Shown here: in pieces, positions 1-18,009 of the stretch
Layout: the number at the start of each line of letters is the position of its first letter
Position numbering within the stretch: position 1 is the stretch's first letter
Assembly (NCBI GenBank): GCA_010093815.1
Contig: ML996569.1
Reading direction: 5' to 3' (one strand)
DNA: 64,000 bases
From: Pseudovirgaria hyperparasitica
Lineage: Eukaryota
Notes under the pieces: model-generated
Database searches by the model: none
Seen by the model: the letters and a program-made list of their open reading frames with translations, nothing else
What the model was told of the DNA's origin: nothing
Program-made: the position numbers and the translations under genes

Positions 1-1020
1 GCTGACAAGAGTCTATGACAGAGCCATGCATGGTGTTTAGCAGGTCGTGCAGAGAGAGTAGTATGGATGTATAGAGTATACACTTACTTTAGTTATTATA
101 TTCTATAGAGTGGGGATAAAGAAGAAGAAGAAGGCGAAGCAAACTATCAGTTAGAGGACGTGGTAGTACTAGTATATCGCATAATGATAGTACGTTGCCT
201 GGAACTCGTGTCCGGTAGACATGCACATATATCTATAAAAATCTCTCCAAGCCAACTAGCATAAATACTACTCCAAGAGAACATGGAGTACAAGGGTTCC
301 TAAACAAAACCTCCTATCAAATAAAGGGAAGTAGTCTCCATAACCCTCTTACCAATTAAATCCCTTCACGCATGAATAGGAAGGGGGATTAAAAAACACA
401 CAAGCCCAGATCCCACCCATACGAGCCACCAGCCCACCCAACGATCCGTGCAAACATAGTCAAGACTGCCGAGTCGGCTCGCGTCCGAGCAGGGATTTCA
501 AGTATCCGACTAACCTGTTTAGGCAGGAAAGCTAGACTAGGCCATCGCCAGCTCCTAACCCAAACGAGCGCAGTCCACGCCAAGAAATGCTGCTTTCGGA
601 TTAGTGTCATAGTGCTTAATCCATGTGTTGTCAGTGCACTACTACAGTACCATCATATCACACGCAGAGAGGGAGACACAGAAGATGCATGGAATGAGGC
701 AAAAATCATGTCAACTTTATGAAATCAAGCAGAGCAGAGCTATCCCCGCCGTCACTTTTAGCTAAAGAAAAGAAATATAAGAATGAAAAGGAGGTGCTTT
801 TCCACCGCCGCCACCGCCCACTAACCATATAAAACGCCAGGAATAGACAACAAAAAACAGAAAGACTGAACTAGAAGAAAGACATGTACACAGAATCGCC
901 CCCGTTTCCAGCAACCCAGACTATTCCCCACTCTCGAACAAACCGAAACAGACCCCTTTAATCCCCAATCCCCAATATATACACGAACCCGAAATCCCCC
1001 CAAAAAACCCCCCAAAAGAT

Positions 1021-2113
1021 CTACGACCAAACATCCACACTCCCATACACCCGATGCGCACTCACCACCTCGCGCCTCGCCACCGCCCCGCGCCCACCGC
1101 CATAAACCAACGACCGCTTCCGCAGCGTGCGCGCGGGATGGTCCATCTCCAGACACCCGGGCACCTGCTTCGTCGCGCACAGCGGGGTGAGTTCACGCGT
1201 CGCCATGTCGCAGAAGTAGCCGTCTGTGCCGACGAAATCGGGGCCCCAGGAGGTTGGGGAGAGACACATTTCGGTGGCGTTGTGGGTGGGCGCGCTGGTG
1301 GAGATGACGAGGTGGGAGTCCATCCAGGGGCGGCGGGGGCGGAGGGTGCTTGTTGTGCTTGTGGTGTTGGAAGAGGAGAGAGAGCGTTTGGTGGCTGGTT
1401 TGTCTGGTGTGTGTGTTAGATTGATTGTTTGACAGGAGGGATAAAAGGGGGGAAAGTAAGGACGAAGACATACCCCCGATATCAACCGCCTTGCGCGAGT
1501 AAAGCGTAGCAGAACACTGCCTATTCTGCGCCAGCGTCGACGCCGCACCCACCTCGCCATACGCCTGCACGCCGAACTTCAACGCAGCAGACACAATCCC
1601 ATTCGACGCATCGGCATCCAACCACGTACAGCTCGGCCGCCAATCCCCGCCATCCCTATACCTCCCCGCGATCTGATTCCCGGCATACCACGACTGCCCA
1701 CACTGCTGCCCGATATCCCCATTCCAGGCACCCGCCGCCGCATCAACCTTGTCGAACTGGCGGACGGCGATCCACGAGATGCAGGTTGCGTCGTTGCCGT
1801 TTGCGACGGAGAGGAAGTCGACTTGTTTGCCGGGCTCGGGCTGGGAGAGGACGACTTCGATGACGCCGCCGTCGCCGATGTGGCCGCCTGTGCTGCGGCC
1901 GATGGGCGCGTTGTTGGCGTCGTAGCCCTGGATTGAGACGATTTGGCCGCCGAAGTCGTGGCAGTTGTTGGGGCATTGGAGGCCGGCTTTGATTTGGACG
2001 GAGGCGCCGAGGCTGGGGGGGCTGTTGCCGGCGAAGTTGGACTTGAGGAAGTCGACTATGCCGAGGGCGCCGGAGATGGTGCCGATGGCGTCGATGGCTA
2101 CGGCCCACGACAT
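1021..2113 (-). CDS. Cys-rich fungal hypothetical protein (~340 aa, 2 exons)
   Basis: ATG at 2113 in CAAAAATG context, TATA-like GTATATAAAG at ~2351-2360. Intron 1404-1473 (GTATGT...CTAAC...CAG) joins ORF 1193..2113 in frame to ORF 1021..1560 (IG|DKP). 10 Cys. Confidence 0.8.
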
Positions 2114-2763
2114 TTTTGGGGGTTGTTTGTTTGGGGGGTTTGGTTTGGGGGGGTTGATGAGATGAGAGGAGGGAAGAGAGAGAGAGAGAAGTGATAGTTG
2201 TAAAGAGTTGTTTGGGGGGGTGAAGAATGGATTCTTGGATGTGAATAGGAGGTAGTGCTGCCGATGAAGCTTGAGATGAAGCTGAAGCTGAAGATGAAGC
2301 CGCTGCTGCCGATGCTAGAATAAAGCACACTCTCCGGGTCCCCAAGCCACCTTTATATACAATTTCCCAGCAGCCCAAAAAATCCAAGTACCATACTGAC
2401 ATCTCTCAACAACAATCAAGAAACAATAAACAACAATGGAAGCATAAAAATGGAAGAAGCTCAGACCACGCACCTACCCCTGCCATATTTGCGTGGGATG
2501 TCTGTCTTTGATCCACAGGGCCGGTCTCTGATATCCGGTCGAATCTCACTTTCCACCTGCCAGGCAGGGATGTTTGCATTAGATTGGAAAATGTATATAC
2601 TGTATGTCGTCACCCCCCCCCCTAATAAAAAAGCGTGGCGGCACGATCCGGGACTAGGCGATGCGCAAGACGGCCGATATTGAGATTATGCCTTATCAGG
2701 ACTTTCGGACGGGCAGGACGGACGATTTCCGCTCATTCGTCGGTTTATGCAAACTGAGGCCAT

Positions 2764-2797
2764 GTTGTTGTTGTTGTTGTTGTTGTTGTCGTTGTTG
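2764..2797. repeat. (TGT)n microsatellite
   Basis: Direct reading: tgttgttgt... with one interruption. Confidence 0.9.
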
Positions 2798-4032
2798 TCT
2801 ACTAGCTCGACAGACCTATGTGTGTGTGTGTGACACAGAGCAAGAAGTCTAGTCTACGCCTACAAGGGTATCTTTCAACTTCCAAAAGTCCGACCATGTT
2901 GTCCGCAGTACAATGTTGATACTGTCTCCAGTCTCCAGTCAGTCTCCAGTACCCAGTCTGTAGTCATCGTGACAAACAAGATCAGCCACGCACTGACATG
3001 ACATTGTACAGTCATAGTCAGACAAGGCAAACATACGACGACCCGGTGTAAAACAACTAAAAGACGACAGTCTCTAATCTCCTCCTCGGAAATCGTACGA
3101 GCGTCACTCGAGTATCTCTTGCACCCCCCCTGGCTTGAACTTGTTGAGATTATCAGTATTGTACAGGAGGACAAGACAGGACAAGACAGAACAGGGATAC
3201 CAAGCAACACGCAAACCCAGCACGATCCCAATGCAATCAAAACAGATATATCCGCAAATAGTCCATCCCTACACCCCAGACAGACATACAGTAAATTCAA
3301 TAAAATGACATTCCTTTACAACACACTCCTATAAGGCAACTTCCATCTTACCCAGCAAGTCCTGGCATCTTAGCCGCCCCCCCAACATGCCTACAATCCA
3401 AGCTAGCGGTATCAAAAGTACTACTGTAGGTATATGCACCGCCCAGGCCCCAAGCGAGCAAGATTCCCACGAGCAGAGCAGAGCAGTGCAGGGGCTGGTG
3501 TGGAGACATACCTGCTATAAGACCCTTACGCTTTTTGTTTTGGTAAAAAAAAAACCCGAACGAGGTATGTGGTAGTAGAGGTAGTGGCATAGACAGCGGG
3601 TCGGGGTCCAGCATACCCCACCACCACCACCACCGAGATTCACCAGAGCACGTTCGTTCGTTGAGAGGCGCACACGCACGGGTACAGCGGTAGACCTTGA
3701 TGCGTTTGCTGAGGACGGGGCCAGGGCATGGCATGGCATGAGTGCGGCTGGGAGGAGAATCGGGGGATTTGGGGGGGAGGGGGGGGATCGAGACGGATTG
3801 ACAGTTGGATGTCGTCGATGCTCTGGATGGTGATGGAGATGTGGTCTGTCTAGACACTGGCAGACTCGAGACTGCTGTCTCTTCTAATCCCCCCGACCCC
3901 CCCCAACCGTGATGGGATAGCAAATGGCGAGTTGGTTGAGAGGGCAGCGAGGGCTAAGGCTGGTTTGTCTAGGGTAGGGTGGTCGAGGTCCAGACCATCG
4001 AGCACGCACTTGGTCAGTGACATAGTTACGAG

Positions 4033-4115
4033 GCAGACAGACAGACAGGCAGACAGACAGACAGGTAGACAGACAGGCAGACAGACAGACAAGACAGACA
4101 AGACAGACAGACAGG
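4033..4115. repeat. Imperfect (CAGA)n microsatellite
   Basis: cagacagacagacaggcagacagacag... read directly. Confidence 0.9.
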
Positions 4116-6311
4116 CAGGAAACAGAATAGACGGTCGACCGAAGTCCGAAGTCCGAAAAACCCATGGCCCCGGGATCAATAAAGTTGAGGACCCTGAAAA
4201 GCAGAATCGGCCCAGAACAGGCCCAGAACAGGCAGGTCAAGACGGGTTTGGGGGGGGGTAGTGGAGAAGTGAAAGGGGAATGGAAAAGCAATAACAGGCG
4301 ATAGGGGGAGGACAGGAACAGGAACAGGAAATGGATGGGGATAGAGAGTGAGAGTGACACACAGACATTGTTCCCCACATGTATATACTCAATAGTAAAA
4401 AGTGCTATGCCCATGTATAGCAGTAAGTAATTAGTGAAGCTGTACAATCTCCATGTCTGCAGTAGATCTACTGAGGCCACGCGGGAGAAGCCAGGCACAC
4501 AGTCCAGCTATCGACCTATACAACGACCAGAGTGACGTGCCGTGCTGCCGAAAGCGGTTAGACTGCCTGGCGAACGTGGCATGTCCCGGTGCAGGTTGTG
4601 TAATCTATAGTCAGTGAGTATGTGTCTGTGTGTGCAAGCTAATAGTAATAATCTAGTTTGCATTAATTGCAGCCACTCTATTCATGCATCTTGTACTTAT
4701 TGTCGTCGTCGAACAGGCTTGCGATGAGCCTCAGTTAAAAACACGACGAACACGAGCTGGCCTAGAATCAACCCCGCAGCTAATGGGAGATATTGATTTT
4801 GTTGAGCATGCACGCTGCCGTCTGCCTGCTGGCGAAGGGGCAATTGGAAAGTGATTTTACGATGCAGTCAGCGGGTTGGTGGATCCTCAATGTTGATTGC
4901 TATAGGTATGATCCATGGAGGAGGAGGACATGGTGATGCTTCGGAGGCGGTGCCGCATGAAAGTGGCACAACCTTGTATGACGCCATGGAGTCGCTTCAT
5001 CCTGCGTAGTGTATTGATCCCTCCGTCCTGGCATGGAGCCCACGAGGCGACACGGGTCCTGCCATCCATCTCGACTGTCGAACCCATGACTCACGACTCA
5101 CGACCCACGACCCTCGAGTCAATGGCGACGAGCAAAGGAAGAGCGTCGAGGAAGAGCTGGCTGAGCGGTCTTGTTCTGCACCAGCGCTGCACATCATAAA
5201 CAAGCTGCAGCAAAAGGCAATAAAGCACTATCTCTGACAATGTCCAGCACGTGGAAGATAGATGAGCAAGACGATAACGCGTAGATTGGCAGCCCAAAGA
5301 GGCAATCGGGAAAGTGATAGTGAGATTGAACCAGCACCGACGGCCCTGCCAAGCTTGCACCATACGCAGATCTGCTTGGCTGTTGCGAGAGGCAGAGAGG
5401 GGCCCGAGCAGGTGAGATCTTGGTGTTCCAAGGTTGGGGTGATGATGTCCGTGACGTACGAGAAAAGCAAGAGATCAGGAACCAGGACATGTCAGTACTC
5501 TCCAGGTACACGCTAGACTATCGTCAAAGTCTCTGAAAGGCATCATGCTCAAGTCAGACTTCTCTTTGCAGTCTCAGTGCTGTCATCGCGTGCAGTCTTG
5601 CAGCTTTCAGTCTGTCACCAACCAATTTTTTTTTGTCCCAATAACCCTGACGATTCGTATGAGGGATCCATCCATCCCACCCCCACGAGCTGAGGCCCCC
5701 ACCGCGCGGAATCTGACGGTTTCGTGTCGCATCCTGAATTGCAAAAAATAGACCAGAAGCGTAGATTGGATAGATGAGATGGAATCGAGTGCGGCGGCAC
5801 TGTACTGTTAGATTGTCCTAGATGGACGCATATGGCAGCATACGTGCTCATTCGCGCTCGGCGGGTCTCGCAGAAATCGTACCATAGTATGGCGGGTACA
5901 GCAAGTCCAGGAGACCCACAACTCAGAGTGTCACGGGCCCGATCAATCTTTGGATCACCCCATTTCGCTCCTTCGCTCAGCAGACAGCACGAGGCTGGCG
6001 AAAGAGCACATGTGGAAAATACAGGAAAGGGTGCGCACAAAGTTCTGCCATCTCGGTGCTGTCAGTATGAGAAGAAGTAGCTGGCTGGCTGGCAGGCAGG
6101 CAGAGAGTAGCAGAAGGATGCATCAAGTGAGGTGTGCGGTCCAGTCTTGCGGCTCGAGCCGGTGGGCAGACTGCTTTGTGGACTGACAAGTGACAGTAGG
6201 AGGTGGTAGCATGTCGAAATAAGCTTTTCGCATGCGACTGTCAATGTCGGCACAGTGCCACGGATGGAAGAGGGTGAAGGCCAAAGGCTAGTATTGATGT
6301 ACTATATATGG

Positions 6312-6380
6312 GAAGTGGGAAGTAGAAGTGGGAAGTAGAAGTGGGAAGTAGAAGTGGGAAGTAGAGGTGTGAAGTGGGAG
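6312..6380. repeat. 13-nt minisatellite (GAAGTGGGAAGTA)x~4-5
   Basis: Direct tandem copies, pure purine/T strand. Confidence 0.85.
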
Positions 6381-8316
6381 AGAATGCTTCGAGGGATATA
6401 TGGAACTTTCCGTGACTTGGCTAGGAAGGCTGACGGTGCGGCTCATGATGGAGAGTGAGCGGAGCAGAGAGACGGTAGATGGCAACAGGTTACGAGAGTA
6501 TAAAAGGGTGGGAGATGTGGCATGTCAAGGTCGAGTGATTGCTCGGAGTCATTGTTGTTGGGTATATCCATAATTACTCTCTAGTCAGTTACATGATGTG
6601 CGACGACTGTAGCAGGCAGATTGAGTGGCTGAGAGTCACGTGGCTGTCTCGTCACACGACCTACATGACCAAATCATCACCTGACTACAGGAACGGTGTA
6701 GCCTGCACTCGGCTCCGAATATGTCGGCAGCTGCTGGTTGGTGCAGCACGTGCACGCGGACAGATGCAGCCAGCAGTAGAGGATCCACCCACGGCAGTAC
6801 AGTAGTCAGTTAGTGGCAATAATTACTGTAAGTAATTAGGGTCCAGAATCATCATTAGGTTCGACCGGACTGTAGGCGGGCTGGTGCAAGTGATGAGTTG
6901 ACAGATGTCAGGCTGGCAGAATGTCGTGTTGGAAGAGAAGTGGTGATGATCCATGAGATATTACGACGGCGGCTGGGATGGCGGAAGATACAGGCAGGTC
7001 AGACGGAGGCAGGGATGGTGGTCGATGTCAATGTCGGTGTCGAGCGTAGCTTGGTGTTTCCAGTACAGCAAGGCATAATAATTATTGTTCTTGCAAGGCT
7101 TTGCTTGACAAAGATGTGTGTGTGAAGAAGGAGAAGATTGACGAAGATTGCTGATTGCTGCCGTTGGCCCAAGATGAAGAGATGAGGATGGCGATGAGGA
7201 TGGCGATGAGGATGAAGAATCTGGCGATGGGCGACGATCACTCCATGGGATGGCGGGATCGGGGTGGGTTGGTACTGTGTATACTGCGGGTGGCCCCAGA
7301 TATACCCACCAAAAGGGCGGAAAAGGGCTGAAAAGTGTGGGCTTGGCAGCTGGCTTCCCCGCAAAGTTGCGCCATCTCGAGTCAGGACAGGCAGGTTGGG
7401 CGCGTGCAGTCAGTGAGTGTAGCCTGTAACCTTAAACCTTAACTAATGGCCCGTCGACGTCACGACCGGCAGTCAACTGTTGCTTCTACTACATACTACT
7501 ACCTTTCTCAGTACTGCTTACCCAGCTAAAATAGGCGCACCTGCACCCTAAACTGTAGGCTGGTCGGCTGCCAAACGTCGCGGCTACCCAGCTAATTCTA
7601 GGGGGCCTTTTAAGTCAATTATCCACGCAAGCCCGCCCCGCCGGTTGACGACTGATGTCACACAGCCTGCCTGGCCTGATTCGGACAAACGGACGGCACT
7701 CACACACTAATTAATCCTTACTACTTACTCTCACACAACATTCCTGTATACTTCATACATCACACTCTATACACCACACACCATTCACTCACACCCTCTC
7801 ACACCACTCGTTCTACTGAGGCTTTTTGCCGCTGCTGCTGGTCTGCCCTTTTGCTGCTACCCACCGGCGCCAGTACGAGCCCAAAGCTTCCTCTTTGCGA
7901 CTCGCGCCCATCGCGTCTCTCGCTGGCTGCCATTCGTCCGTCGTCGTGCTATCGCCGCTTTGGTCCTCTTATAACGCATCCGACCAGCCAGGCTCAGTCA
8001 CGAGCCTCGAAATCTTGTCTATGCTAATGCCAATTCGAGAAAACAGTCGTTGCTTTGCCATCCTGACTCTCGACCCTAATATCTGCCACTTGTCGCCCAA
8101 ATTTCGCTCCCTTGAGCCCTTTCTCCCACCACATTTACTGTGCCGCCGACAATCTTCTCTCTCTCGACCTTTCTCCCTCTCTATAACCTCGTCTCCCAAT
8201 CAAGAACGTTCCACCGCAGAGACTAATCGCCAATCGCCTGCTACATACACATATATGCTGTAGAACACTATGCTGGAGGAGCACCCAATCCCTACTGCTT
8301 CATCCCGGCCGGCATC

Positions 8317-11094
8317 ATGGCGACGACTACGTCCGATGTCTTCCATACTCGCGCCCCGACTATCCTCGCCGTCACCACCGTCTTCATCGTCCTCTCCTCC
8401 GTCTTCGTAGCCCTTCGCATGATATCAAGAATCGCCATCGTGCATAAAGTGGGTCTGGATGACTATCTGATGCTCGGTGCATGGGTATGTTGTGATAATG
8501 CCCTTCCATGCTCCAACACGACCATGATGCTGATTCCTTCTAGCTCATCTCATTTGGCATGTCGTTTGCCATCTGCTATGGCACTTCCGTAGGCTTGGGA
8601 CGCCACGAGGAAGATATTCCACCTGCTTGGGACTCTGCCTTGAAAAAGTCCCAATACGCCTTCTCAGTTCTCTATGTAATCATGCTCCCACCACTACTAC
8701 ATGACCTTCTCTTGCTAACCTCCAGTCGCGAAGAATCCTGCCTTGATGGCGACAAAGACTTCCATTCTGGCCTTCTACTTGACTCTCTCACGAACACATC
8801 AATTCTTCCGTTGGTCCACCCTTACCACCTTGGCCATCGTCAATCTCGCCGGCGTCGCCCTCACCATACTCAACATCGTGCAATGTCGTCCCGTCGAAGC
8901 TGCCTTTGACCAGTTCCCTGCCTCGACCGCCCACTGTACGGACATTGTCACCCTCTACCTCTCCTCCGCCCCGGTCAACATCATCACCGATCTCGCCATT
9001 CTCATCCTACCCATGCCAATCCTGACTGGCATGCACCTTCCACGCAAGCAAAAGACCATCCTGATCATCACCTTTAGCTTCGGCGTCTTCGTTACTGCTG
9101 TCGATGTCGTTCGCATAGCATATCTTCAGTCGGCCGTCTCCACCCGCCTGAGAAGCATCGCTGCCCAACAGACTGCTACCGAGCACGGCGATACTCGCAG
9201 CTTCGAGGCCAACGACTTTTCTTGGTATGCTGGCTTTTCCTTCATGTGGTCGGCCATTGAGGTGCACGTCGGCATGATGTGCGCTTGTGTGCCAGCCTTG
9301 AAACCTCTGGTGGCACGCTTCCTGCCAAAAATGTTGCGCGACGATACCTGCAATGACCGGACGGGCGTGCGAACCTCGACTGGCCACATGGATGGCTCAC
9401 TGGATGCCAGAAACATGGAGGGACTCCCTACCGCCACGGCACCGCAGCGTCCTCAGTCTGCTGCAGCCGATCCTCAACGCGTGATGAGCCAGGAAATAGA
9501 TATGATGGATTTCCTGACCACACCAGACATGAGAGAGCTACCTGAACGCATCGCCAGAACCCAGACCGCAATGACAAACACCACTCGACACACGCAACCA
9601 AGTAGCCAGAAATTCTTCGAATTCGTGAATATCCGCCAGGGCAAGAGCATGGTCCACTTCACCCATCGAGAATCCATCTTCCCGCTCACCATGGTTACGT
9701 TGCTGTTCTTTGTATGGGGCTTCGCTTACGGACTGCTGGATGTTCTCAACTCCAGATTCCAGGAAATCGCACACATGTCCTCTCTACAGACCGTTGGCAT
9801 ACATAGCGCCTACTTTGCTGGCTACTTTATAGGGCCCATCACTTTTGGTCGCCTCGTGCTCAAGAACTGGGGCTTCAAGGCTTGTTACATCGTCGGCCTG
9901 ATCATCTACGGTTGCGGAACCCTGATATTCTGGCCATCCGCCGTCCTCACTTCGTTCCCCGCCTTTCTCGTCTCAAATTTCATCGTCGCATTGGGCCTTT
10001 CCACCCTGGAGATAGCCGCGAATCCGTTCATCGCTCTTGTCGGCCCATCGCGATATGCAGAGACCAGGCTCAATCTCTCTCAGGGCATCCAGGCAGTCGG
10101 AACTGTAGTCTCGCCACTGCTTGCAAAGAAGGTGCTCTTCAAAGCAGAAGCAGATTCACTCATTGATGTCCAATGGACCTACCTTGGAATATCCCTATTT
10201 ACCTTCCTGCTGGCTCTAGCTTACTATTACGTGCCCCTGCCCGAAGCCACCGACGACGAGCTCGACGATGCGTCTGAACGATACGATGCCGCAAACACAA
10301 AGACCATGTTCAATGTCAAAACCATTTGGCTTACCTTGGCCGTCGGCGTCTTCAGTCTATTCTGCTACGTCGGTGGCCAGGAAGTCGTTGCCACCAGCTT
10401 TGGACCCCTCACCAGTGTGTTGATGCCCCGAGACAGCGAATCCGACACCACAAACGACCAAGCCATTGCCCACACCGTCTTCGCCATATCACGCTTTGTC
10501 AGCGCAGCAGCGACATGCCACTTCAAACCCCGACACGTTCTCTTATTCTTCTATGCCGGCGCTATTGCGTTCAGCGCAGCAGCAATGCATGGCATCGGCC
10601 TAACGCCAACGGTGCTTGTCATGTCCATCTACTTTTTCGAGGGCCCCATATTCTCCATTGTCTTTGCCATGTGCTTGCGTGGCATGGGCCGACACACCAA
10701 GATGGCGTCCATCGTACTCACCGCGGCGGTATCGGGCGGCGCCGTCTTTCCCCCGATTGCATACAGCGTGCAGAAATCGCATGGCACGCAGTACGCCTTG
10801 TGTGTTGCCGTTGCGGCCTTTACAGCAGGCACCCTGCTCGCCCTATGGACCGAGCTTGTCCCCAAAGCGCGGCGCATCGTCGATCCACTCACGGACCCCA
10901 GCGCCGCGAACTCGGATGATGATGAGGAGGAGGAGGAGGAGGATAGTGCCGAGCGATCGGGGTCAGAGAGCAAGCGGAGTAGTATACTACGGGGCATCAG
11001 GCGGAAGATTAGGGAGCTCAAGGACGAGATGCCGACGAGAGAGCACCGCGAGAGGAAATCCTGGCCGTCTTCTCCGCAAAAGGACGAGACGTGA
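8317..11094 (+). CDS. PTH11-like (fungal rhodopsin-domain, 7TM) protein fused to an L-fucose permease (FucP)-like MFS transporter, ~886 aa
   Basis: Exons 8317-8484, 8544-8675, 8734-11094. N-terminal motifs are PTH11-type (LRMISR..GLDDYLM, GLGRH, TKTSILAFYL, QCRP, NIITDLAILILPMP, WSAIEVHVGMMCACVPALKPL). C-terminal motifs are FucP-type (LFFVWGFAYGLLDVLN, SAYFAGY, LEIAANPF, RLNLSQG, CYVGGQ). No stop or intron between the domains. Confidence 0.9.
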
Positions 11095-11099
11095 GCCAT

Positions 11100-11190
11100 C
11101 TTGATCATGCCTGATCGCCTTGGTCATACTTGATCGTCTTGGTCATGCCTGATCGCCTTGGTCATACTTGATCGTCTTGGTCATACTTGG
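11100..11190. repeat. 19-nt tandem repeat with alternating A/B variants just after the stop codon
   Basis: cctgatcgccttggtcata / cttgatcgtcttggtcatg alternate at 11110-11185. Confidence 0.9.

Positions 11191-11537: not shown

Positions 11538-11625
<88 letters not shown>
11538..11625. repeat. (AC)n microsatellite, ~44 units
   Basis: Uninterrupted AC run. Confidence 0.97.
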
Positions 11626-11904: not shown

Positions 11905-14105
11905 TTACATCCGCGCCTTCTTCTCATCTACCTCGTCCTCGTCACTGTCACAGCTCAGATCCGCGCCATCACCAATGCTATACCTCTCCTGCTCCATGCC
12001 ACTACCATCACGATCACCACCATCATCCTCACCCTCATCGCGGTCAAACAGCTTACTCTTCGCCTCCCCGCCGCCCGCCTCATTAGCGTAGCGTTGCCGT
12101 CGTCCGTTCACATGTCCATGCCCATGTCCATGTCCATGTCCATGCCCACGCAAGTCAAGCTCCTGCTCGTCAAAGTCCGCCGCCTCCAGATCCTCTTCCG
12201 TGCGACCGACCCTATTGCCAAAGCTCTCGAGGCCGGCGCGGAGATTCCCCGCAGCGCGACTAGCCACGGCGACAGGACCGTTGCCGCCGCCACGACCACC
12301 ACCACCACCATTATTCGAGCTGGTAAACAAGCCCTGATAGCCCGCGCGCCTGCGGCGATCGCGCCAGACGAACCAGCCCCAGGCGGCGGCGGCCAGCGCG
12401 ACAATGACGAGGACGACCTCGCCGCTCTTCTGGTATGCGTGCCAGGCCGCCTCCTTGACGCGCTGCTTTTCTGCCTCCTGGCCGACGGTGCTGTTGGTGT
12501 GGCCGCCCACGCTCGTTTCCGGGCCGGCCTTTTCGCCGTCGAGTTGGGAGTCGACTGGGTGGCCGCCCACGCTGGCAATGTCGACGCCCATGAAGCGGTC
12601 TAGCATGTCTCGTGTGCGTCGCGGGTAGTCGAATGGGACCATGTGTGAGGAGTTGTAGAACAGCACGTATGTGAGGTTTCGGGCTTCTTGGTAGAATCCC
12701 GCGGGCTCGCCTTCGAATTCCCATTCGCGGCGGGGGGCGGTGACGCCGGGTGATAGTTCGAAGCCTTTTCCTTCGTTCCACTCCATGTTCTTGATCAGCT
12801 CCTCCGTACCAATGTGGTTGCAGATGAAGTCTCTGTCGCCGGAAAATAGAACGATAGGAACTGTCCCGAGGATGCCAGGTAGAAGCTCAATGGATGGCAC
12901 GGAGTTGCGCGCGCGGAAGTTGGACGATACCGCACCGTTGCATTCCTGCCAGCCAGTCTTCTTGTCGCCGTCAATGTGCAAGGCGCTGGTAACGTCCTTG
13001 CGTCGCAGGTATGGAGTGACGTCTGCCAAATCTGGAGGCCAGTTCATGCCACAGGAATCATCGTCGCGGAGACGAATGTCGTACATGTTCAGACATTGCT
13101 GGTTCTTCTCCGCGTGTTTGTCCTTTGTCATCTCGAGGATGTCCGTCATGATGCGCTCGCATTGCGCGACGTCGACATGACCTTTGCCGTCGCCGTTCAG
13201 AACTTCCGTACATTTGGCTTGCTGCGCCGCAACACGTCTTGCAATATCACTCCCGTCTTGAATGAGATGCTCCTTGTATGCGTACTGCATGTAGGAGAAG
13301 TACTGATCGACTGGCGAAATCCAGCCATTTCCAATCAGAAGGCCGGACAGGTTCCACGTCGACTTCGCCTTGTCCGCCTTGCTGTTGCGATCCATAATAG
13401 CCTTTGCGATGTAGGGGAGATGTTGGCCAGCGTACGATTCTCCAGCGAGGTAGAGCTATTCACAAGTCAGCCTTGGGATTCCCGATTGTGACACATCTTG
13501 ACATACATCGTCATTCTCATACTCCGGGAACAGCGCAAACCACTTTTCCAGGAATATCATGAAGTTGTCTGCCATCTCTTGTAGTTCGTGAAGGAACCCG
13601 TTCGTGTCCACGTAGCTGAATCCCGTGCCGACCGGATTGTCCACGAAGAGCAGGTTGGCAAACTCGTCCCACGAGCCCTCATTATACTCCAGCTTTCCGC
13701 CTTCTCTTACACGATATGGACCGATTTCCATCATCGCTCCGTCCATAGAACTACACCCCGGCCCTCCGTTCAGCCATATCACCGTTCTTTGACGATCGCC
13801 GATGTGTCTATTTTGGTAGTGCCAAAAGAAGAGGTTGCCGTGATTTTCTTCCGTGACGGTTATGTGTCTGTGGTGTGTAATATTAGGAAGAGTATCGAAC
13901 GCGATTTTTCAAAGCAGGCTTACCCAGCATGCATCTTGAGAAGCGGGCCGTCTGGCGCCCCTGGCAGAGACTTGACATAGTAGTCAGCAGCTCTTTTGTC
14001 TGCGGCCGCTGTGGGTATCCACAGGGCGGAAAGTAGAGGTAGTATGACAAGCATAATGCTAGAAGCAGCTGATGAGCCTCGTGTGTCGATATTAAAAGGT
14101 CGCAT
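11905..14105 (-). CDS. KEX1: Pheromone-processing serine carboxypeptidase Kex1 (S10)
   Basis: Signal peptide, then [12 protein letters not shown] and [10 protein letters not shown]. Catalytic GESYAG, DFICN and SHMVPFD motifs. C-terminal TM followed by acidic tail (AADFDE). Introns 13868-13923 and 13456-13506. Confidence 0.93.
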
Positions 14106-14992: not shown

Positions 14993-15837
14993 TCATAATA
15001 GCTCACCGAAACCCCTCTCTGAATCGTTCTTGATCAGATCGATCATACCCTGATAATGTCAGTAGAGTTGATATGCACCCGAGACGTATAGCCTCACCTC
15101 AGGCATCACAGGCTCGCCATCCTTCCCTTTGACATAGCGGAATGGCATCTCCGTGCTCTCGTGCTTGTTGACCTTCAACTCCGGATGATCCACATACTCG
15201 ATCTTTTCCAGAGGAGCTGAACACGGAAGACTTAGCTATAAATGCTGTCTTGTGCGTTGTTGATGACTCACTGCGATCTTGAACAACGATTCGTGTTACT
15301 CTGACAGCAGTGTCTGTCGTCATTTGTACAGGGCCAAGCCGACGGCCTTCATATCCTTTCTTGCGAAGCTCCGACGTTCTGTCTGAATATCATGTTAGTA
15401 GCACATAAGTTCGTGTGTACATCTGGACCTGCCTCGTGGAGGGTCATCGCCTAAGTTGCTCATCAGCATTTGATTATCTAGCACACACCAGGCAGAATCC
15501 TACCCAATATGCCACCGAACAGAAAGACTGTGAACTTGTCGCCATCCTCCGGGCTAAGCTCTTTGCTAGCCGCAGGGTCCAGCAAGCAGACAGACTCCTT
15601 TTGAGATGCAAAGATCTCTTCTACGCTCCTCTGCTCTATTTTGATACCTTTGCTCTGCTTGACAACCCCAGGGATATTGGTAGCAAGCGACTCCGGCACC
15701 GAAGATAGCAGAAATTGCGCATTCGCCTCGTAGCTTTCCTTAGCGATAGCTGCATATTCTAGAGCAGACCATTGCTCCAGCTCAGGATCCAGATGTTCTA
15801 CGACATAGGTCTTGCTTGACTCTGCAAAATTCGCCAT
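14993..15837 (-). CDS. SFM1: SPOUT-family protein arginine methyltransferase Sfm1 (DUF431)
   Basis: YVVEHLDPEL..W..LEY, CLLDPAA.KELSPEDG, FLFGGILGDDPPRDRTSELR, RRLGPVQMTTDTAVRVT, TEMPFRY. Five exons including an 18-nt micro-exon at 15433-15450. Confidence 0.85.
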
Positions 15838-16433
15838 CTGTGACTTTGTTGGTCGAGATTGACGGAGACGATAAGCCGAGAAGTGCAGATATTTGGGAGC
15901 ACACAATGGTATTACTTAACCAAGATGTAGGTGTCTATTAAGCAAAAGTGTCCTTGCACAACTGGAGTGAATTTTGCATCTTGACTCTCTCGCTATAGTA
16001 CGCTACACCCAGTATAGGTTTAGCGTAATGTCTTCGTTATGAGGGGAGATACATTCTTGCTTTATGATGGTTCCTTTTAGTGCGCTATATTCTCGACTAT
16101 CTATATAAGAAGCCGAAGTAACTTCTTGACCTTCATATATACATCTGTACTGTCTACTATCTTTTGCAGGGCGCCAGTTGCAGATTCGTGTCTGAGTACC
16201 TACAACCGTCCGTCGGCTAACTTATAGCATAGTTGCAAGACATCTATCCAGACATCTGTTACAGGAGCTCGAGACGTATGAGGGCACGATCTCGAGGGAT
16301 AGCAGCAGTCGACCGGTACAAGATCTCTGCCATCCTCTACTCGAGCTTGCTCCAGATCCGCAAAATTGCATGGTCTACTTGTCCTTCGTGTCGCAGCGTA
16401 ACTCTACTAGCAGACACGGTTTTTGCATGCATC

Positions 16434-17690
16434 TCAACCTCCGACTGCTTCTTCCAGCGTCCACACCTTCACTTCTCCGTCATCGCCTGTGCTCACAATC
16501 ACCTCTTCATCCTCACTGCGCCTTCCCTTGTCCCACCTTTTCGCCCACACCACATGATTGACCTCAAAAACTCCATGGGCGGCCTCGATACTCGCCACAA
16601 CAGTCCATTCAGTCCCAACATCTTCTTCAGCCCCTGACTTCCACTGCTCTTTGTACACAACAATCATCCCATCGCTTCCCGCGCTGACCACCAAGCCGCT
16701 GGTAGTGCTCCATGATGCGGAATAAACGGCTCGAGTATGGGTACCCGGGAATTGCGCTTCCTCAAGCCAGGTCTCATCGATGTTTGACGAGCGGATGATG
16801 CTGGGTACTCCAGTGTTACGTGCAGCGTTCGCGTCGTCCGCAGGAGGCTCGCGGCGCCAAATACGGATGCTGAGGTCGTCTGAGGCTGATAGTAGCCGTG
16901 GCCCGGATGCAGCGCGTTGGATCAGAAAGTCGCGCTGTGCTTGCGACAGCTCCTCAGAGGGAGTCGCCTTGAGGCCTGGTAGATCAGCGCCTTCGAACGT
17001 AACACACCACACGGTGGCCTTGTGCCCCTGGATGACGGCTACCTGCTCCCAGTCATCGACGTCCTCCTTGTATAAACGGATTGTATCGTCGTATGAGGCA
17101 CTGGCGAGCAGGTCCTCCGCCGGGTGCCAGGCGACACACTTTACGTCGCCATCGTGCTCGCTCAGCACCGCCATGGTCTCCCAATTGTCATCGTCAAGCT
17201 CTTCCCATATCCAAACAGACTTGTCACGCGAGCAAGTGGCTAGCAGACGGGATGACGGGGCGAAGGCAAGGCTCTTGATCTCGCTCTCGTGGCCATCGAG
17301 TAGCACGGTAAAGGCGTATTCACCATCGTCGTCGTCATCATCTTCATCGTTATCGTTCTCGTCCGTACTGACAATGCCATGATTCAGTGACTCTACGGCA
17401 TCCCCAGAGTAGTGTTTCTTCCATATCCCAGCTGAAGCGTCGAAGCTACCTGTTGCAAGCACAGCGTCGCCTTTGCGCAAGGCGGGCTGCCACGCGACGG
17501 AGCGAATGGAGCGTTTATGGCCGCCGGAGAGGGTGGTTATGAGATTGAAAGAGGTGAGCGAGTAGATGCGAACGGTCTTATCTGACGAGGCTGTTGCTAG
17601 TAGGGGAAGAGTCGGGTGTGGTTGGGATTGCCAAGTGCGCGTTGAAGCGGGAGGGGTAAAGTTTGCGAGATGCGATATCTGGAGGGGCAT
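16434..17690 (-). CDS. CIA1: Cytosolic Fe-S protein assembly WD40 protein Cia1
   Basis: WD40 repeats with Cia1 motifs: HKRSIRSVAW, LATGSFD, GHESEIKS, LATCSRDKSVWIWE, EHDGDVKCVAWHP, LASASYDDTIR, AHGVFEVNHV. First ATG at 17690. Confidence 0.92.
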   Translation of the reverse strand: MPLQISHLANFTPPASTRTWQSQPHPTLPLLATASSDKTVRIYSLTSFNLITTLSGGHKRSIRSVAWQPALRKGDAVLATGSFDASAGIWKKHYSGDAVESLNHGIVSTDENDNDEDDDDDDGEYAFTVLLDGHESEIKSLAFAPSSRLLATCSRDKSVWIWEELDDDNWETMAVLSEHDGDVKCVAWHPAEDLLASASYDDTIRLYKEDVDDWEQVAVIQGHKATVWCVTFEGADLPGLKATPSEELSQAQRDFLIQRAASGPRLLSASDDLSIRIWRREPPADDANAARNTGVPSIIRSSNIDETWLEEAQFPGTHTRAVYSASWSTTSGLVVSAGSDGMIVVYKEQWKSGAEEDVGTEWTVVASIEAAHGVFEVNHVVWAKRWDKGRRSEDEEVIVSTGDDGEVKVWTLEEAVGG

Positions 17691-18009
17691 CGTGGGGCTT
17701 TGGAGGAGGATTGAAGGACGGAGAAGAGAACCTGTGGTAGCAGAAGTCGACAATTATGGACTGGTGAGCTCCCAAAGCAGACCATGAGAGACAATAGACG
17801 CTGACAGCGGCGATAATGGAAATGATTGAGTTGCAAAAAACGATGTTCAAGCTTGCGCACAACGATGATGTCGGGTGCGCCATGACGGTCTAGTCCGACT
17901 TCCCGGCCGAAGCTCAGGAGCTATATTAACAACATGCGCTGCCGTTCGTCTTCATGAATGGACAATTCTTCAATTCTTCAATTCTTCCAAGGACAGATTC
18001 GTTCTCGCT

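Follow-up and report, generated by a model that had tools for sequence, protein, structure and literature searches.

The locus raises the question of whether a seven-transmembrane (7TM) receptor-like domain and a sugar permease are joined in a single fungal protein and, if they are, what such a protein could do. PTH11-like proteins form the largest putative receptor family in filamentous ascomycetes and, to our knowledge, almost none of them has a known ligand or a demonstrated mechanism. The FucP family has a solved structure with a well-understood sugar and proton site, and a PTH11-class member joined to so well-understood a transporter would offer a concrete handle on the role of the 7TM domain.

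Gene structure and domain content

The window analysed was a stretch of 64,000 nucleotides from Pseudovirgaria hyperparasitica (Dothideomycetes; contig ML996569.1 of assembly GCA_010093815.1). A protein-coding gene of three exons lies on the plus strand at positions 8317–11094 and encodes 886 aa (Table 1). The joined exon translation was identical, letter for letter, to a public 886-aa model (P0002) named “MFS monosaccharide transporter-like protein”. The original prediction had placed most of a PTH11-type 7TM domain, a polar linker and a complete FucP-like MFS domain in one exon, and the ORF and Pfam analyses bore this out for each part and its position. Specifically, the stop-to-stop ORF at 8719–11094 (+) comprises 791 aa, and the translation starting at 8734 (786 aa) holds PF20684 and PF07690 in the same frame by profile search, the former at residues 3–195 (profile positions 69–237 of 237, E 5.7e-42) and the latter, MFS_1, at residues 323–673 (E 1.1e-17). 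On the full 886-aa protein, PF20684 covered residues 33–295 and the entire profile (positions 1–237), scoring 198 bits against a gathering threshold of 27, and PF07690 covered residues 423–773 (E 1.3e-17). A total of about 19 TM segments had also been proposed, and AF2 modelling gave 7 + 12 long helices, at residues 13–42, 47–71, 83–118, 123–148, 171–199, 204–251 and 262–296 for the 7TM domain and within 411–816 for the MFS domain.

The description of the gene as an undescribed system does not hold at the level of sequence, as it carries transporter names in public databases, and Pfam-based resources already list the architecture. The neighbouring genes encode a carboxypeptidase S10, an SFM1-like protein and a WD40 protein, and provide no sugar-catabolic context. 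When P. hyperparasitica sequencing runs were compared with the locus, one 68-nt contig was placed per run, downstream of the gene.

Table 1. Coordinates of the gene parts, domains and key residues within the window.
Feature	Position	Strand	Description
Exon 1	8317..8484	+	aa 1–56: ATG at 8317, short extracellular N-terminus, TM1 and beginning of TM2; donor GTATGT at 8485; agrees with P0002
Intron 1	8485..8543	+	59 nt, GT...AG; junction between GAW and LISFG agrees with P0002
Exon 2	8544..8675	+	aa 57–100: TM2 up to beginning of TM3
Intron 2	8676..8733	+	58 nt, GTAATC...CTAAC...AAG; branch site CTAAC, acceptor AG; junction between SVLY and NPALMATK agrees with P0002
Exon 3	8734..11094	+	aa 101–886 and stop TGA: remaining 7TM, linker, entire MFS domain, tail
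Fung_rhodopsin (PTH11-class) 7TM domain	8353..9321	+	aa 13–296, split by both introns; PF20684, 198 bits
Linker (cytosolic by predicted topology)	9322..9663	+	aa 297–410 (~110 aa), mostly disordered: pLDDT <50 at 311–391
Linker motif MMDFLTTPDM	9502..9531	+	aa 357–366, short helix inside disordered stretch
FucP-like 12-TM MFS permease domain	9664..10950	+	aa 411–839; phmmer, Foldseek, TIGR00885
D436 codon GAT	9739..9741	+	FucP Asp46 (proton coupling), from phmmer alignment
E526 codon GAG	10009..10011	+	FucP Glu135, from phmmer alignment
C-terminal tail	10951..11091	+	aa 840–886, disordered, acidic/basic; pLDDT <50 at 843–886

Conservation of the fusion

Similar fusions had been expected in other fungal proteomes, and homology searches together with domain scans of representatives revealed a conserved orthologous family. 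The 7TM domain was present, in proteins of full-length size, in all 240 matches listed from two homology searches. PF20684 and PF07690 occurred together in 120/120 of the matches listed from the first search; among those listed from the second, PF20684 was found in 120/120 and PF07690 as well in 105, the other 15 being proteins of 952–1098 aa. Both domains were detected in 28 of the 37 representatives scanned, reaching 34–36% identity. Carriers of the fusion range over Neurospora, Trichoderma reesei, Fusarium, Leotiomycetes and one basidiomycete (Kwoniella). Names from Aspergillus or Penicillium did not occur among the 240 fusion matches listed, which is no evidence of absence. In a gene tree built with FastTree, a Dothideomycete clade stood apart from a clade of Leotiomycetes and Sordariomycetes, a class-wise split that is consistent with vertical descent. 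Judging from these comparisons, the fusion arose long ago and has been passed on vertically as a family.

Across 70 sequences, columns conserved in at least 90% numbered 93/300 in the 7TM domain and 90/421 in the MFS domain, and the P. hyperparasitica protein shared 51% identity with its Sordariomycete orthologues over the 7TM domain and 40% over the MFS domain. A lack of purifying selection on one domain had been named beforehand as a possible ground against the fusion; the dN/dS values, which derive from the 9/136 pairs with usable dS, were 0.03–0.07 for the 7TM domain, 0.01–0.07 for the MFS domain and, among relatives, 0.05–0.09 for the linker. By this measure, 7TM domain, linker and MFS domain are all under strong purifying selection.

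The receptor-like module

A CFEM domain was absent, as originally stated: PF05730 was not detected at E ≤0.1 on the full protein, in which about 12 residues precede TM1, and the protein falls outside the CFEM-containing PTH11 proteins proper. The 7TM fold gave a TM score of 0.86 to a cluster with the CFEM+Fung_rhodopsin architecture. In a VIA search with the 7TM model of an orthologue, the top match was Ste2 (Z 18.7, rmsd 3.6 Å over 244 residues), followed by further GPCRs, the second match having Z 15.9. Searching the PDB with the 7TM model, Foldseek found nothing at E ≤0.001, the best value being 5.3e-3 and the matches listed being only GPCRs and microbial rhodopsins. As modelled, the 7TM module is a GPCR fold, and since no PDB match reached E ≤0.001 its likeness to GPCRs is at the fold level only.

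The permease module

The 12-TM fold of the second module, with FucP as its closest characterised relative, places it in the MFS/FHS family (TC 2.A.1.7). Escherichia coli FucP (PDB 3O7Q/3O7P) was the best match in both sequence and structure: 3o7q was the top phmmer sequence match (E 2.7e-34, covering FucP residues 22–409), and 3o7p/3o7q were the best Foldseek matches of the domain, with a TM score of 0.79 by target and 25–26% identity. At E ≤0.001, Foldseek gave 340 matches in the PDB, and the ones listed were MFS transporters. The best NCBIfam models were fucP, gluP and NagP, but the scores lay under the equivalog cut-offs (TIGR00885 fucP, 156.8 bits versus 280.4; NF007524, 129.4 versus 427), so that the name “L-fucose permease” is not warranted. 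The fungal protein keeps the equivalents of FucP Asp46, Glu135 and Gln159 and the LExAANPF motif. It differs from FucP in having Gln for Asn162 and in the addition of a 300-aa 7TM module, a 110-aa linker and a 47-aa tail.

An alignment to FucP had been suggested as a check on the acidic residues of proton coupling, and both were found to be kept, as D436 and E526; the roles of Asp46 and Glu135 in FucP are described in PMC3824880. The E526 column held Glu in 69/70 sequences. Among Dothideomycete-type homologues the D436 equivalent was Asp in 117/120 and the E526 equivalent Glu in 117/120, whereas in the Sordariomycete/Leotiomycete set Asn replaces the Asp46 equivalent in 113/114, with the Glu135 equivalent kept. 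Apart from this Asp/Asn site, nothing degenerate was found in the translocation path. Given the Asn in nearly all of the Sordariomycete/Leotiomycete set, canonical H+ coupling may be dispensable for the conserved function of the family, and the case for “active symporter” as its core role is the weaker for it.

Besides the fusion there is a family of standalone paralogues (the P0206 group) of about 460–500 aa, 38% identical to the MFS domain of the fusion. Sequence comparison sets this group apart as a lineage of its own, found in the same species as the fusion. The coexisting standalone paralogue keeps the Asp and could be the real bulk transporter.

Linker, tail and domain packing

Only 6/109 linker columns were conserved in at least 90% of sequences; the linker residues F360 and L361 reached this level across the 70 sequences, and a second linker motif, FFEFV, lies at aa 394–398. 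The pattern DF[LM][TS][TS]P was present in 101/120 Dothideomycete-type homologues versus 11/114 of the Sordariomycete/Leotiomycete set. The C-terminal tail contains EHRERKSWP (11041–11067), and the corresponding pattern [EQ][HW][RK]E[RK] was found in 85/120 Dothideomycete-type homologues. Strict expressions for the linker and tail motifs matched 11/114, 0/114 and 0/114 of the Sordariomycete/Leotiomycete set. As far as these patterns go, both motifs differ between clades in their details.

The AF2 model of the whole chain had a pTM of 0.81, with pLDDT ≥70 at 698/886 residues. By the definition of pTM, a value of 0.81 implies that the two domains are confidently positioned relative to each other, this being the predictor's own confidence only. 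The Atlas models of the P. hyperparasitica protein and of a cluster representative agreed with a TM score of 0.87 across residues 2–829. When the 7TM (1–300) and MFS (405–830) domains were submitted to complex prediction as separate chains, the scores of 0.05 and 0.07 stayed below the mark of 0.34 and yielded no verdict.

Proposed function and alternative explanations

The gene encodes one 886-aa, 19-TM protein of plasma-membrane type, whose orthologues form an ancient family in filamentous fungi; the best explanation, to which we give about an even chance, is that this protein works as a hybrid of receptor and transporter. The Dothideomycete permease would be transport-competent and would probably import a hexose or 6-deoxyhexose by H+ coupling, both FucP acids being kept. 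The 7TM module would pack on the permease within the membrane and act as a built-in regulatory or sensing partner. The predicted topology of the 7TM module is N-out/C-in, which would put the linker and the MFS N-terminus in the cytosol, and the linker motif and the basic motif of the C-terminal tail are likely sites of partner binding, phosphorylation or trafficking control. The logic of such a hybrid receptor–transporter would be comparable to that of human LYCHOS/GPR155. Of all the observations, only the architecture and the Asp/Asn dichotomy are suggestive of a transceptor.

Alternatively, the protein could be a plain sugar permease in which the MFS domain does all the work and the 7TM domain serves passively in folding, ER exit, oligomerisation or targeting to a membrane domain. 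This would fit the public names, which treat the family as transporters, the intact MFS core and FucP acids, and the absence of an extracellular ligand-binding domain, CFEM being missing and the N-terminus about 12 aa long. It is nevertheless rather unlikely, as conservation of the 7TM module equals or exceeds that of the permease by both identity and conserved columns, the dN/dS of the 7TM module is unusually tight for a mere anchor, and standalone FucP-like paralogues in the same species manage without such a module.

A further, more specific reading makes the family the fungal equivalent of LYCHOS built on an MFS transporter, an obligate hybrid of GPCR fold and permease. Here the 7TM domain would sense the conformational cycle of the FucP-like domain and pass extracellular sugar availability on to G-protein/cAMP signalling or trafficking; transport would be kept in Dothideomycetes and the Asn form would be an uncoupled carrier or a pure receptor in Sordariomycetes and Leotiomycetes. 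We regard this as unlikely in its full extent; if true, a ligand-binding module could be defined for a PTH11-class receptor for the first time. 

It is improbable that the hybrid is a sugar sensor that does not transport, with an MFS domain that only binds its ligand and the 7TM domain as signalling output. The precedent is found in Snf3/Rgt2, yeast nutrient sensors with a transporter fold, which the long disordered cytosolic linker and tail recall. The near-uniform Asn at the proton-coupling site of Sordariomycetes and Leotiomycetes, next to a kept Glu135 equivalent, would fit such a role, as would a single conserved fusion copy beside a standalone paralogue with Asp at this position in 115/120. 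Against it, the Asp is kept in the P. hyperparasitica protein and in nearly all Dothideomycete-type homologues, and Asn there would still permit facilitated diffusion or exchange.

Two products from one gene, through an internal promoter or start (e.g. at the conserved Met pair of MMDFL) or through cleavage of the linker, would be compatible with the length and disorder of the linker and with two public gene models (P0133 and P0153) that begin at query residues 357–358. These short models are as likely to be truncated predictions, and we consider this explanation very improbable: the reading frame of the fusion has been maintained across classes, protein-level purifying selection acts on the linker, AF2 confidently puts both domains together, and a relative has a polyadenylated mRNA of full length. 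The latter is a metatranscriptome contig (L073, 3738 nt) in which both domains lie in one ORF of 978 aa, preceded by an in-frame stop, and which ends in a poly(A) tail of 101 nt; the relative thus makes a single polyadenylated mRNA across both modules. A lack of introns was not accepted as a sign of cDNA, since uninterrupted ORFs also occur in large genomic metagenome contigs; only this contig was used as mRNA evidence. Finally, an annotation or assembly artefact joining two neighbouring genes, which the original prediction had already discounted, is refuted, as one uninterrupted exon carries both domains and the same architecture recurs across hundreds of independent assemblies and in the poly(A) transcript.

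Significance and comparison with known systems

The fusion is kept in relatives of tractable models (Neurospora crassa, T. reesei and Fusarium), which makes genetics and uptake assays straightforward, and the natural Asp/Asn split between fungal classes provides a ready comparison of coupled and uncoupled forms. A receptor–transporter hybrid of this kind would show an independent fungal origin of transporter–GPCR hybrids, hitherto known from LYCHOS. The original prediction knew of no functional characterisation, and our literature search likewise found no description or functional characterisation of a 7TM–FucP-like fusion.

Among fungal members of the same MFS family, the FHS-family transporters Aspergillus niger RhtA and N. 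crassa FRT-1 are reported to serve L-rhamnose/L-fucose uptake (PMC5161314, PMC10774165); for RhtA the work used the hexose-transporter-null yeast EBY.VW4000 (PMC5161314). By these descriptions, they differ from the fusion in being presented as transporters, with no mention of a receptor module. Four N. crassa FHS-family genes are named, with lengths up to 1050 aa (PMC10774165), and two further papers mention two of these loci only in expression tables (PMC4015282, PMC10684091). A T. reesei “fucose permease” (78833) is described as induced on cellulose and sophorose (PMC3998047); no link of this ID to the fusion protein P0310 was found.

On the receptor side, Magnaporthe oryzae PTH11 and the PTH11-like (class 14) receptors share the PF20684 family and the 7TM fold with the P. 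hyperparasitica protein, which differs in its absence of CFEM and in a C-terminus that runs on into a transporter. The PTH11-like family is described as fast-evolving and divergent (10.64898/2026.06.16.732702), and the 7TM module of the fusion is far more conserved between classes than that account reports for the family.

The yeast transceptors Gap1, Pho84 and Mep2 are reviewed as transporter folds that report nutrient availability (PMC3824880). These proteins and the yeast sensors resemble the fusion in concept but are without a 7TM receptor module. Oomycete GPCR-bigrams combine an N-terminal GPCR-like 7TM domain with a functional C-terminal module. That module is a soluble catalytic domain, PIPK for example, where the fungal fusion has a polytopic transporter; the taxa are different, and so are the 7TM families. 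The nearest analogue is LYCHOS/GPR155, which also has a DEP domain and whose parts are unrelated to those of the fungal fusion, no homology being implied. It is described as a hybrid or “transceptor” that joins a transporter-fold and a GPCR-fold domain in a single chain, as the fungal protein does (PMC11525196, 10.1101/2024.09.24.614577). According to these accounts, LYCHOS is a lysosomal 17-TM protein with a PIN-like transporter N-terminal to the GPCR domain, whereas in the fungal fusion the order is the opposite, with the 7TM domain preceding the MFS permease.

Gene structure and domain content

Exon 3 of the three-exon gene encodes most of a PTH11-class seven-transmembrane (7TM) domain and a whole FucP-like MFS domain in a common frame, and the original prediction of an in-frame fusion was right in every particular. 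In P0001, the 786-aa translation of this exon, a Pfam scan placed Fung_rhodopsin at residues 3–195 (profile positions 69–237 of 237, E 5.7e-42) and MFS_1 at residues 323–673 (E 1.1e-17). The translation of all three exons was letter-identical to P0002, an 886-aa public protein titled [quoted passage not shown] at NCBI, in which PF20684 covers residues 33–295 (198 bits) and MFS_1 residues 423–773. Around the gene, the SFM1-like and WD40 neighbours are both unrelated to sugar metabolism, and the long ORFs at positions 1–7500 of the window gave no Pfam match.

Features of the fusion gene and its surroundings in the window
Feature	Position	Strand	Details
Stop-to-stop frame	8719-11094	+	791 aa
Exon 1	from ATG 8317	+	168 nt; read directly; ends at GTATGT donor (8485)
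Exon 2	8544-8675	+	read directly
Intron before exon 3	up to 8733	+	CTAAC branch site, AG acceptor
Exon 3	8734 to TGA at 11092-11094	+	read directly
D436 (FucP Asp46 equivalent)	codon 9739-9741	+	sequence alignment with FucP
E526 (FucP Glu135 equivalent)	codon 10009-10011	+	sequence alignment with FucP
Tandem repeat, presumed 3' UTR	11099-11189		directly past stop; 19/38-nt, consensus TCTTGGTCATACTTGATCG, 4.8 copies, 84% matches
(AC)44 microsatellite	11538-11625		perfect; between permease gene and convergent carboxypeptidase gene
Serine carboxypeptidase (Peptidase_S10)	11905-13908	-	convergent neighbour; two ORFs, E 9.3e-54 and 2.1e-44; abundant Gly, His-Gly repeats and acidic residues in a long C-terminal extension
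SFM1-like protein arginine methyltransferase fragment	15478-15915	-	E 1.1e-32
WD40 beta-propeller protein	16434-17753	-	

Structure of the two modules

The permease is a member of the FHS family (TC 2.A.1.7), and the best solved relative of the MFS part by sequence was E. coli FucP (3o7q, E 2.7e-34, FucP residues 22–409). Modelled in full with AlphaFold2 on a 70-sequence alignment (mean pLDDT 83.6, pTM 0.81), the protein gave FucP (3o7p/3o7q) as its top Foldseek matches, with E ~1e-12 and a TM score of 0.79 normalised by target. In the alignment to E. coli FucP, both acidic residues are retained (D436 and E526), as is FucP Gln159, whereas FucP Asn162 is replaced by Gln. The protein fell short of the NCBIfam equivalog cut-offs (TIGR00885, 156.8 bits vs 280.4; NF007524, 129.4 vs 427), so that by sequence the module does not qualify as a FucP equivalog and "fucose permease" is a family label giving no substrate assignment.

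The 7TM module was modelled from a 361-aa orthologous fragment carrying this domain only, folded from the family alignment (pLDDT 81, pTM 0.77). Foldseek returned no PDB match to this model at E≤0.001, its weak list consisting of GPCRs and microbial rhodopsins. In an exhaustive VIA-align search, where helical bundles reach Z ~13–14 by chance, the fungal class D GPCR Ste2 came top (Z 18.7, rmsd 3.6 Å over 244 residues), followed by TAS2R14, designed GPCR-like folds and many class A receptors at Z 13–16. Residues 1–300 of the ESM Atlas model superposed on clusters of Fung_rhodopsin proteins that contain CFEM, with a TM score of 0.86. In the fusion itself, a Pfam scan of the full protein found no CFEM domain at E≤0.1, in agreement with the original prediction, and the AlphaFold2 model has only ~12 residues ahead of TM1. 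The module therefore shows the GPCR-type fold of the PTH11 class, minus the extracellular CFEM of PTH11.

An N-out 7TM bundle finishes in the cytosol and MFS proteins begin there, so the chain of 7 + 12 TM helices is inferred to be topologically coherent. AlphaFold2 predicted disorder at residues 311–391, save for a short helix at 357–362 (MMDFLT, part of a linker motif singled out in the original prediction), and in the last ~45 residues. The conserved linker motif holds a Thr-Pro site and the tail the sequence EHRERKSWP, which by our own motif reading is presumably a site of the basophilic-kinase type; these motifs, in predicted disordered cytosolic segments, are plausible as putative docking, phosphorylation or trafficking signals.

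Distribution, descent and selection

Taxonomy look-up, done for P. hyperparasitica, Halenospora and Kwoniella pini, places the first in the Dothideomycetes (order Acrospermales). With exon 3 as query, 8000 candidates were scored and 1609 matched at E≤1e-3; all 120 matches listed carried PF20684 with PF07690 (722–991 aa, 53–63% identical apart from self). Those with names belong to Dothideomycete genera, among them Bipolaris, Aureobasidium, Ascochyta, Diplodia and Zopfia. A profile built from 16 distant members listed 120 proteins (875–1098 aa), all with PF20684 and 105 also with PF07690, the remaining 15 being 952–1098 aa long. This list spans Neurospora, Sordaria, Podospora, Fusarium, Metarhizium and Colletotrichum, a Trichoderma reesei protein publicly named "fucose permease" (P0310), the Leotiomycetes Halenospora and Cadophora, and one basidiomycete, Kwoniella pini. 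The expectation that similar fusions exist in other fungi was thus borne out among the homologues listed. When the 50%-identity representatives were searched exhaustively, 351 matched at E≤1e-30, and 37 of these were scanned: 28 had both domains at E≤1e-5, three had PF20684 alone at that threshold yet were aligned by phmmer across both regions, and six, all short (482–614 aa), had MFS only. The ESM Atlas contains at least four clusters with the domain pair, with 60, 184 and 97 members in the three listed.

In a FastTree phylogeny of 70 full-length members, the Dothideomycetes (39 rows) and the Leotiomycetes plus Sordariomycetes (22 rows) fell into separate clades, a split as expected for vertical descent of these sequences. 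The K. pini protein (P0152, 1009 aa; Tremellales) shows the same Fung_rhodopsin and MFS fusion in a basidiomycete; it sits on a long branch with two unnamed representatives, and may have arisen by either vertical descent or transfer. PTH11-like proteins are described as confined to Pezizomycotina in the accessible part of a fungal GPCR survey (10.1101/2024.11.25.625238).

In the 70-sequence alignment, columns at least 90% conserved numbered 93 of 300 in the 7TM module, 90 of 421 in the MFS module, six of 109 in the linker and none of 56 in the tail. Against Sordariomycete orthologues, this protein is 51% identical over the 7TM module and 40% over the MFS module, the receptor-like part therefore being the better conserved. 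When the window's gene was codon-aligned with 16 metagenomic orthologues (Nei-Gojobori; usable at 0.05<dS<1.5), nine pairs of 136, from five distinct lineages, were usable and gave dN/dS of 0.03–0.07 in the 7TM module, 0.05–0.09 in the linker and 0.01–0.07 in the MFS module, so that neither of the predicted domains lacks purifying selection.

Loss of the Asp46 equivalent and reading of the fusion

Asp46 of FucP is needed for H+-coupled uptake, according to a review (PMC3824880, citing Dang et al.). Across the 70 aligned fusions the equivalent column held D in 43, N in 23, S in two, and A and G in one each; the Glu135 column held E in 69. In larger sets counted by motif (regex), and among the matches listed, Dothideomycete-type fusions had D in 117/120 and E in 117/120, and Sordariomycete/Leotiomycete-type fusions (P0272–P0385) had N in 113/114 and E in 82/114, the other 32 giving no regex match. 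A highly conserved standalone FucP-like paralogue (P0206, P0386–P0504; ~460–500 aa, 38% identical to the fusion MFS domain) had D in 115 and E in all of the 120 listed. It occurs in Agaricomycetes and ascomycetes, whose members are 65–89% identical between them, and alongside the fusion in at least six named Dothideomycetes (Zopfia, Lindgomyces, Clohesyomyces, Lophiotrema, Patellaria and Tothia); an Aspergillus niger protein (P0499) is also a member. On the tree, the Asp to Asn change falls on the stem branch of the Leotiomycete plus Sordariomycete clade, with one reversal in Cytospora. Thus the fused lineage tolerates, and one large clade fixes, loss of the FucP H+-coupling residue, whereas the unfused paralogue does not, as would fit a fused protein whose conserved role is something other than bulk active uptake. 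The protein encoded in the window retains the Asp.

The fusion is a single, selected 19-TM polypeptide in which a PTH11-class module with a GPCR fold is joined to a FucP-family permease of intact structure. We give an even chance to its being a coupled receptor-transporter, in which the Dothideomycete protein would bind a hexose or 6-deoxyhexose and probably transport it with protons, and the 7TM module, packed against the permease in the model, could therefore modulate or report permease state. The pTM approximates the ordered fraction (698/886 residues at pLDDT≥70), which, given how pTM is defined, requires that the two domains be placed confidently relative to each other, and Atlas models of the window protein and a cluster representative superposed at TM 0.87 across residues 2–829. 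The full "transceptor" scenario, including G-protein signalling proper, is doubtful.

A plain permease with the 7TM module as a structural appendage is unlikely though credible. A non-transporting sensor is improbable; loss of the Asp in the Asn-type clade speaks for it, and retention of the Asp in the Dothideomycete proteins against it. That the modules are made as separate products is very improbable. Among metagenome loci of relatives (80 examined, 281 confirmed), L073 is a complete, metatranscriptome-like contig of 3738 nt. Its 978-aa ORF, preceded by a stop codon in the same frame, includes both Pfam domains and is followed by a 3' UTR (~340 nt) and a final stretch of 101 A residues. It is a polyadenylated mRNA across both modules in a relative (Asn type, ~40% identical to the window protein), and shorter extra transcripts may occur in P. 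hyperparasitica. An artefact has a vanishingly small chance, since both domains occupy one exon, which excludes gene merging as the original prediction had argued.

Comparison with known systems

In the full-text literature, with subscription journals mostly outside it, no description or characterisation of a PTH11-like/MFS or FucP fusion was found, and an older one may exist; nor was the fusion found in the accessible parts of two recent fungal GPCR surveys (10.1101/2024.11.25.625238, 10.64898/2026.06.16.732702). As a sequence the gene is not undescribed: such proteins are public under transporter names and the architecture is visible in Pfam-based resources, so the fusion is not categorically new. 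It is conserved and unstudied, hints at a mechanism and lends itself to direct tests in model fungi, its special function so far being inferred.

Characterised fungal FHS members include the L-rhamnose/L-fucose transporters RhtA of A. niger and FRT-1 of N. crassa (PMC5161314, PMC10774165, as far as their available text goes), and N. crassa is described in the latter as having four FHS genes with protein lengths up to 1050 aa. Since the fusion orthologue of Neurospora hispaniola has 1054 aa, one of these four is probably a fusion. The 7TM module of the fusion differs from PTH11 itself in being a CFEM-less PTH11-like domain. To our knowledge, the only well-studied protein combining a transporter fold with a GPCR fold is human LYCHOS/GPR155, which, from the accessible descriptions, is analogous and not homologous, with the domain order reversed. 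Oomycete GPCR-bigrams fuse 7TM domains to enzymes. An ESM Atlas cluster of 52 proteins of ~1015 aa combines CFEM and Fung_rhodopsin with the N and C domains of GMC oxidoreductases, so that fusion of PTH11-class domains to other functional parts may be more widespread.
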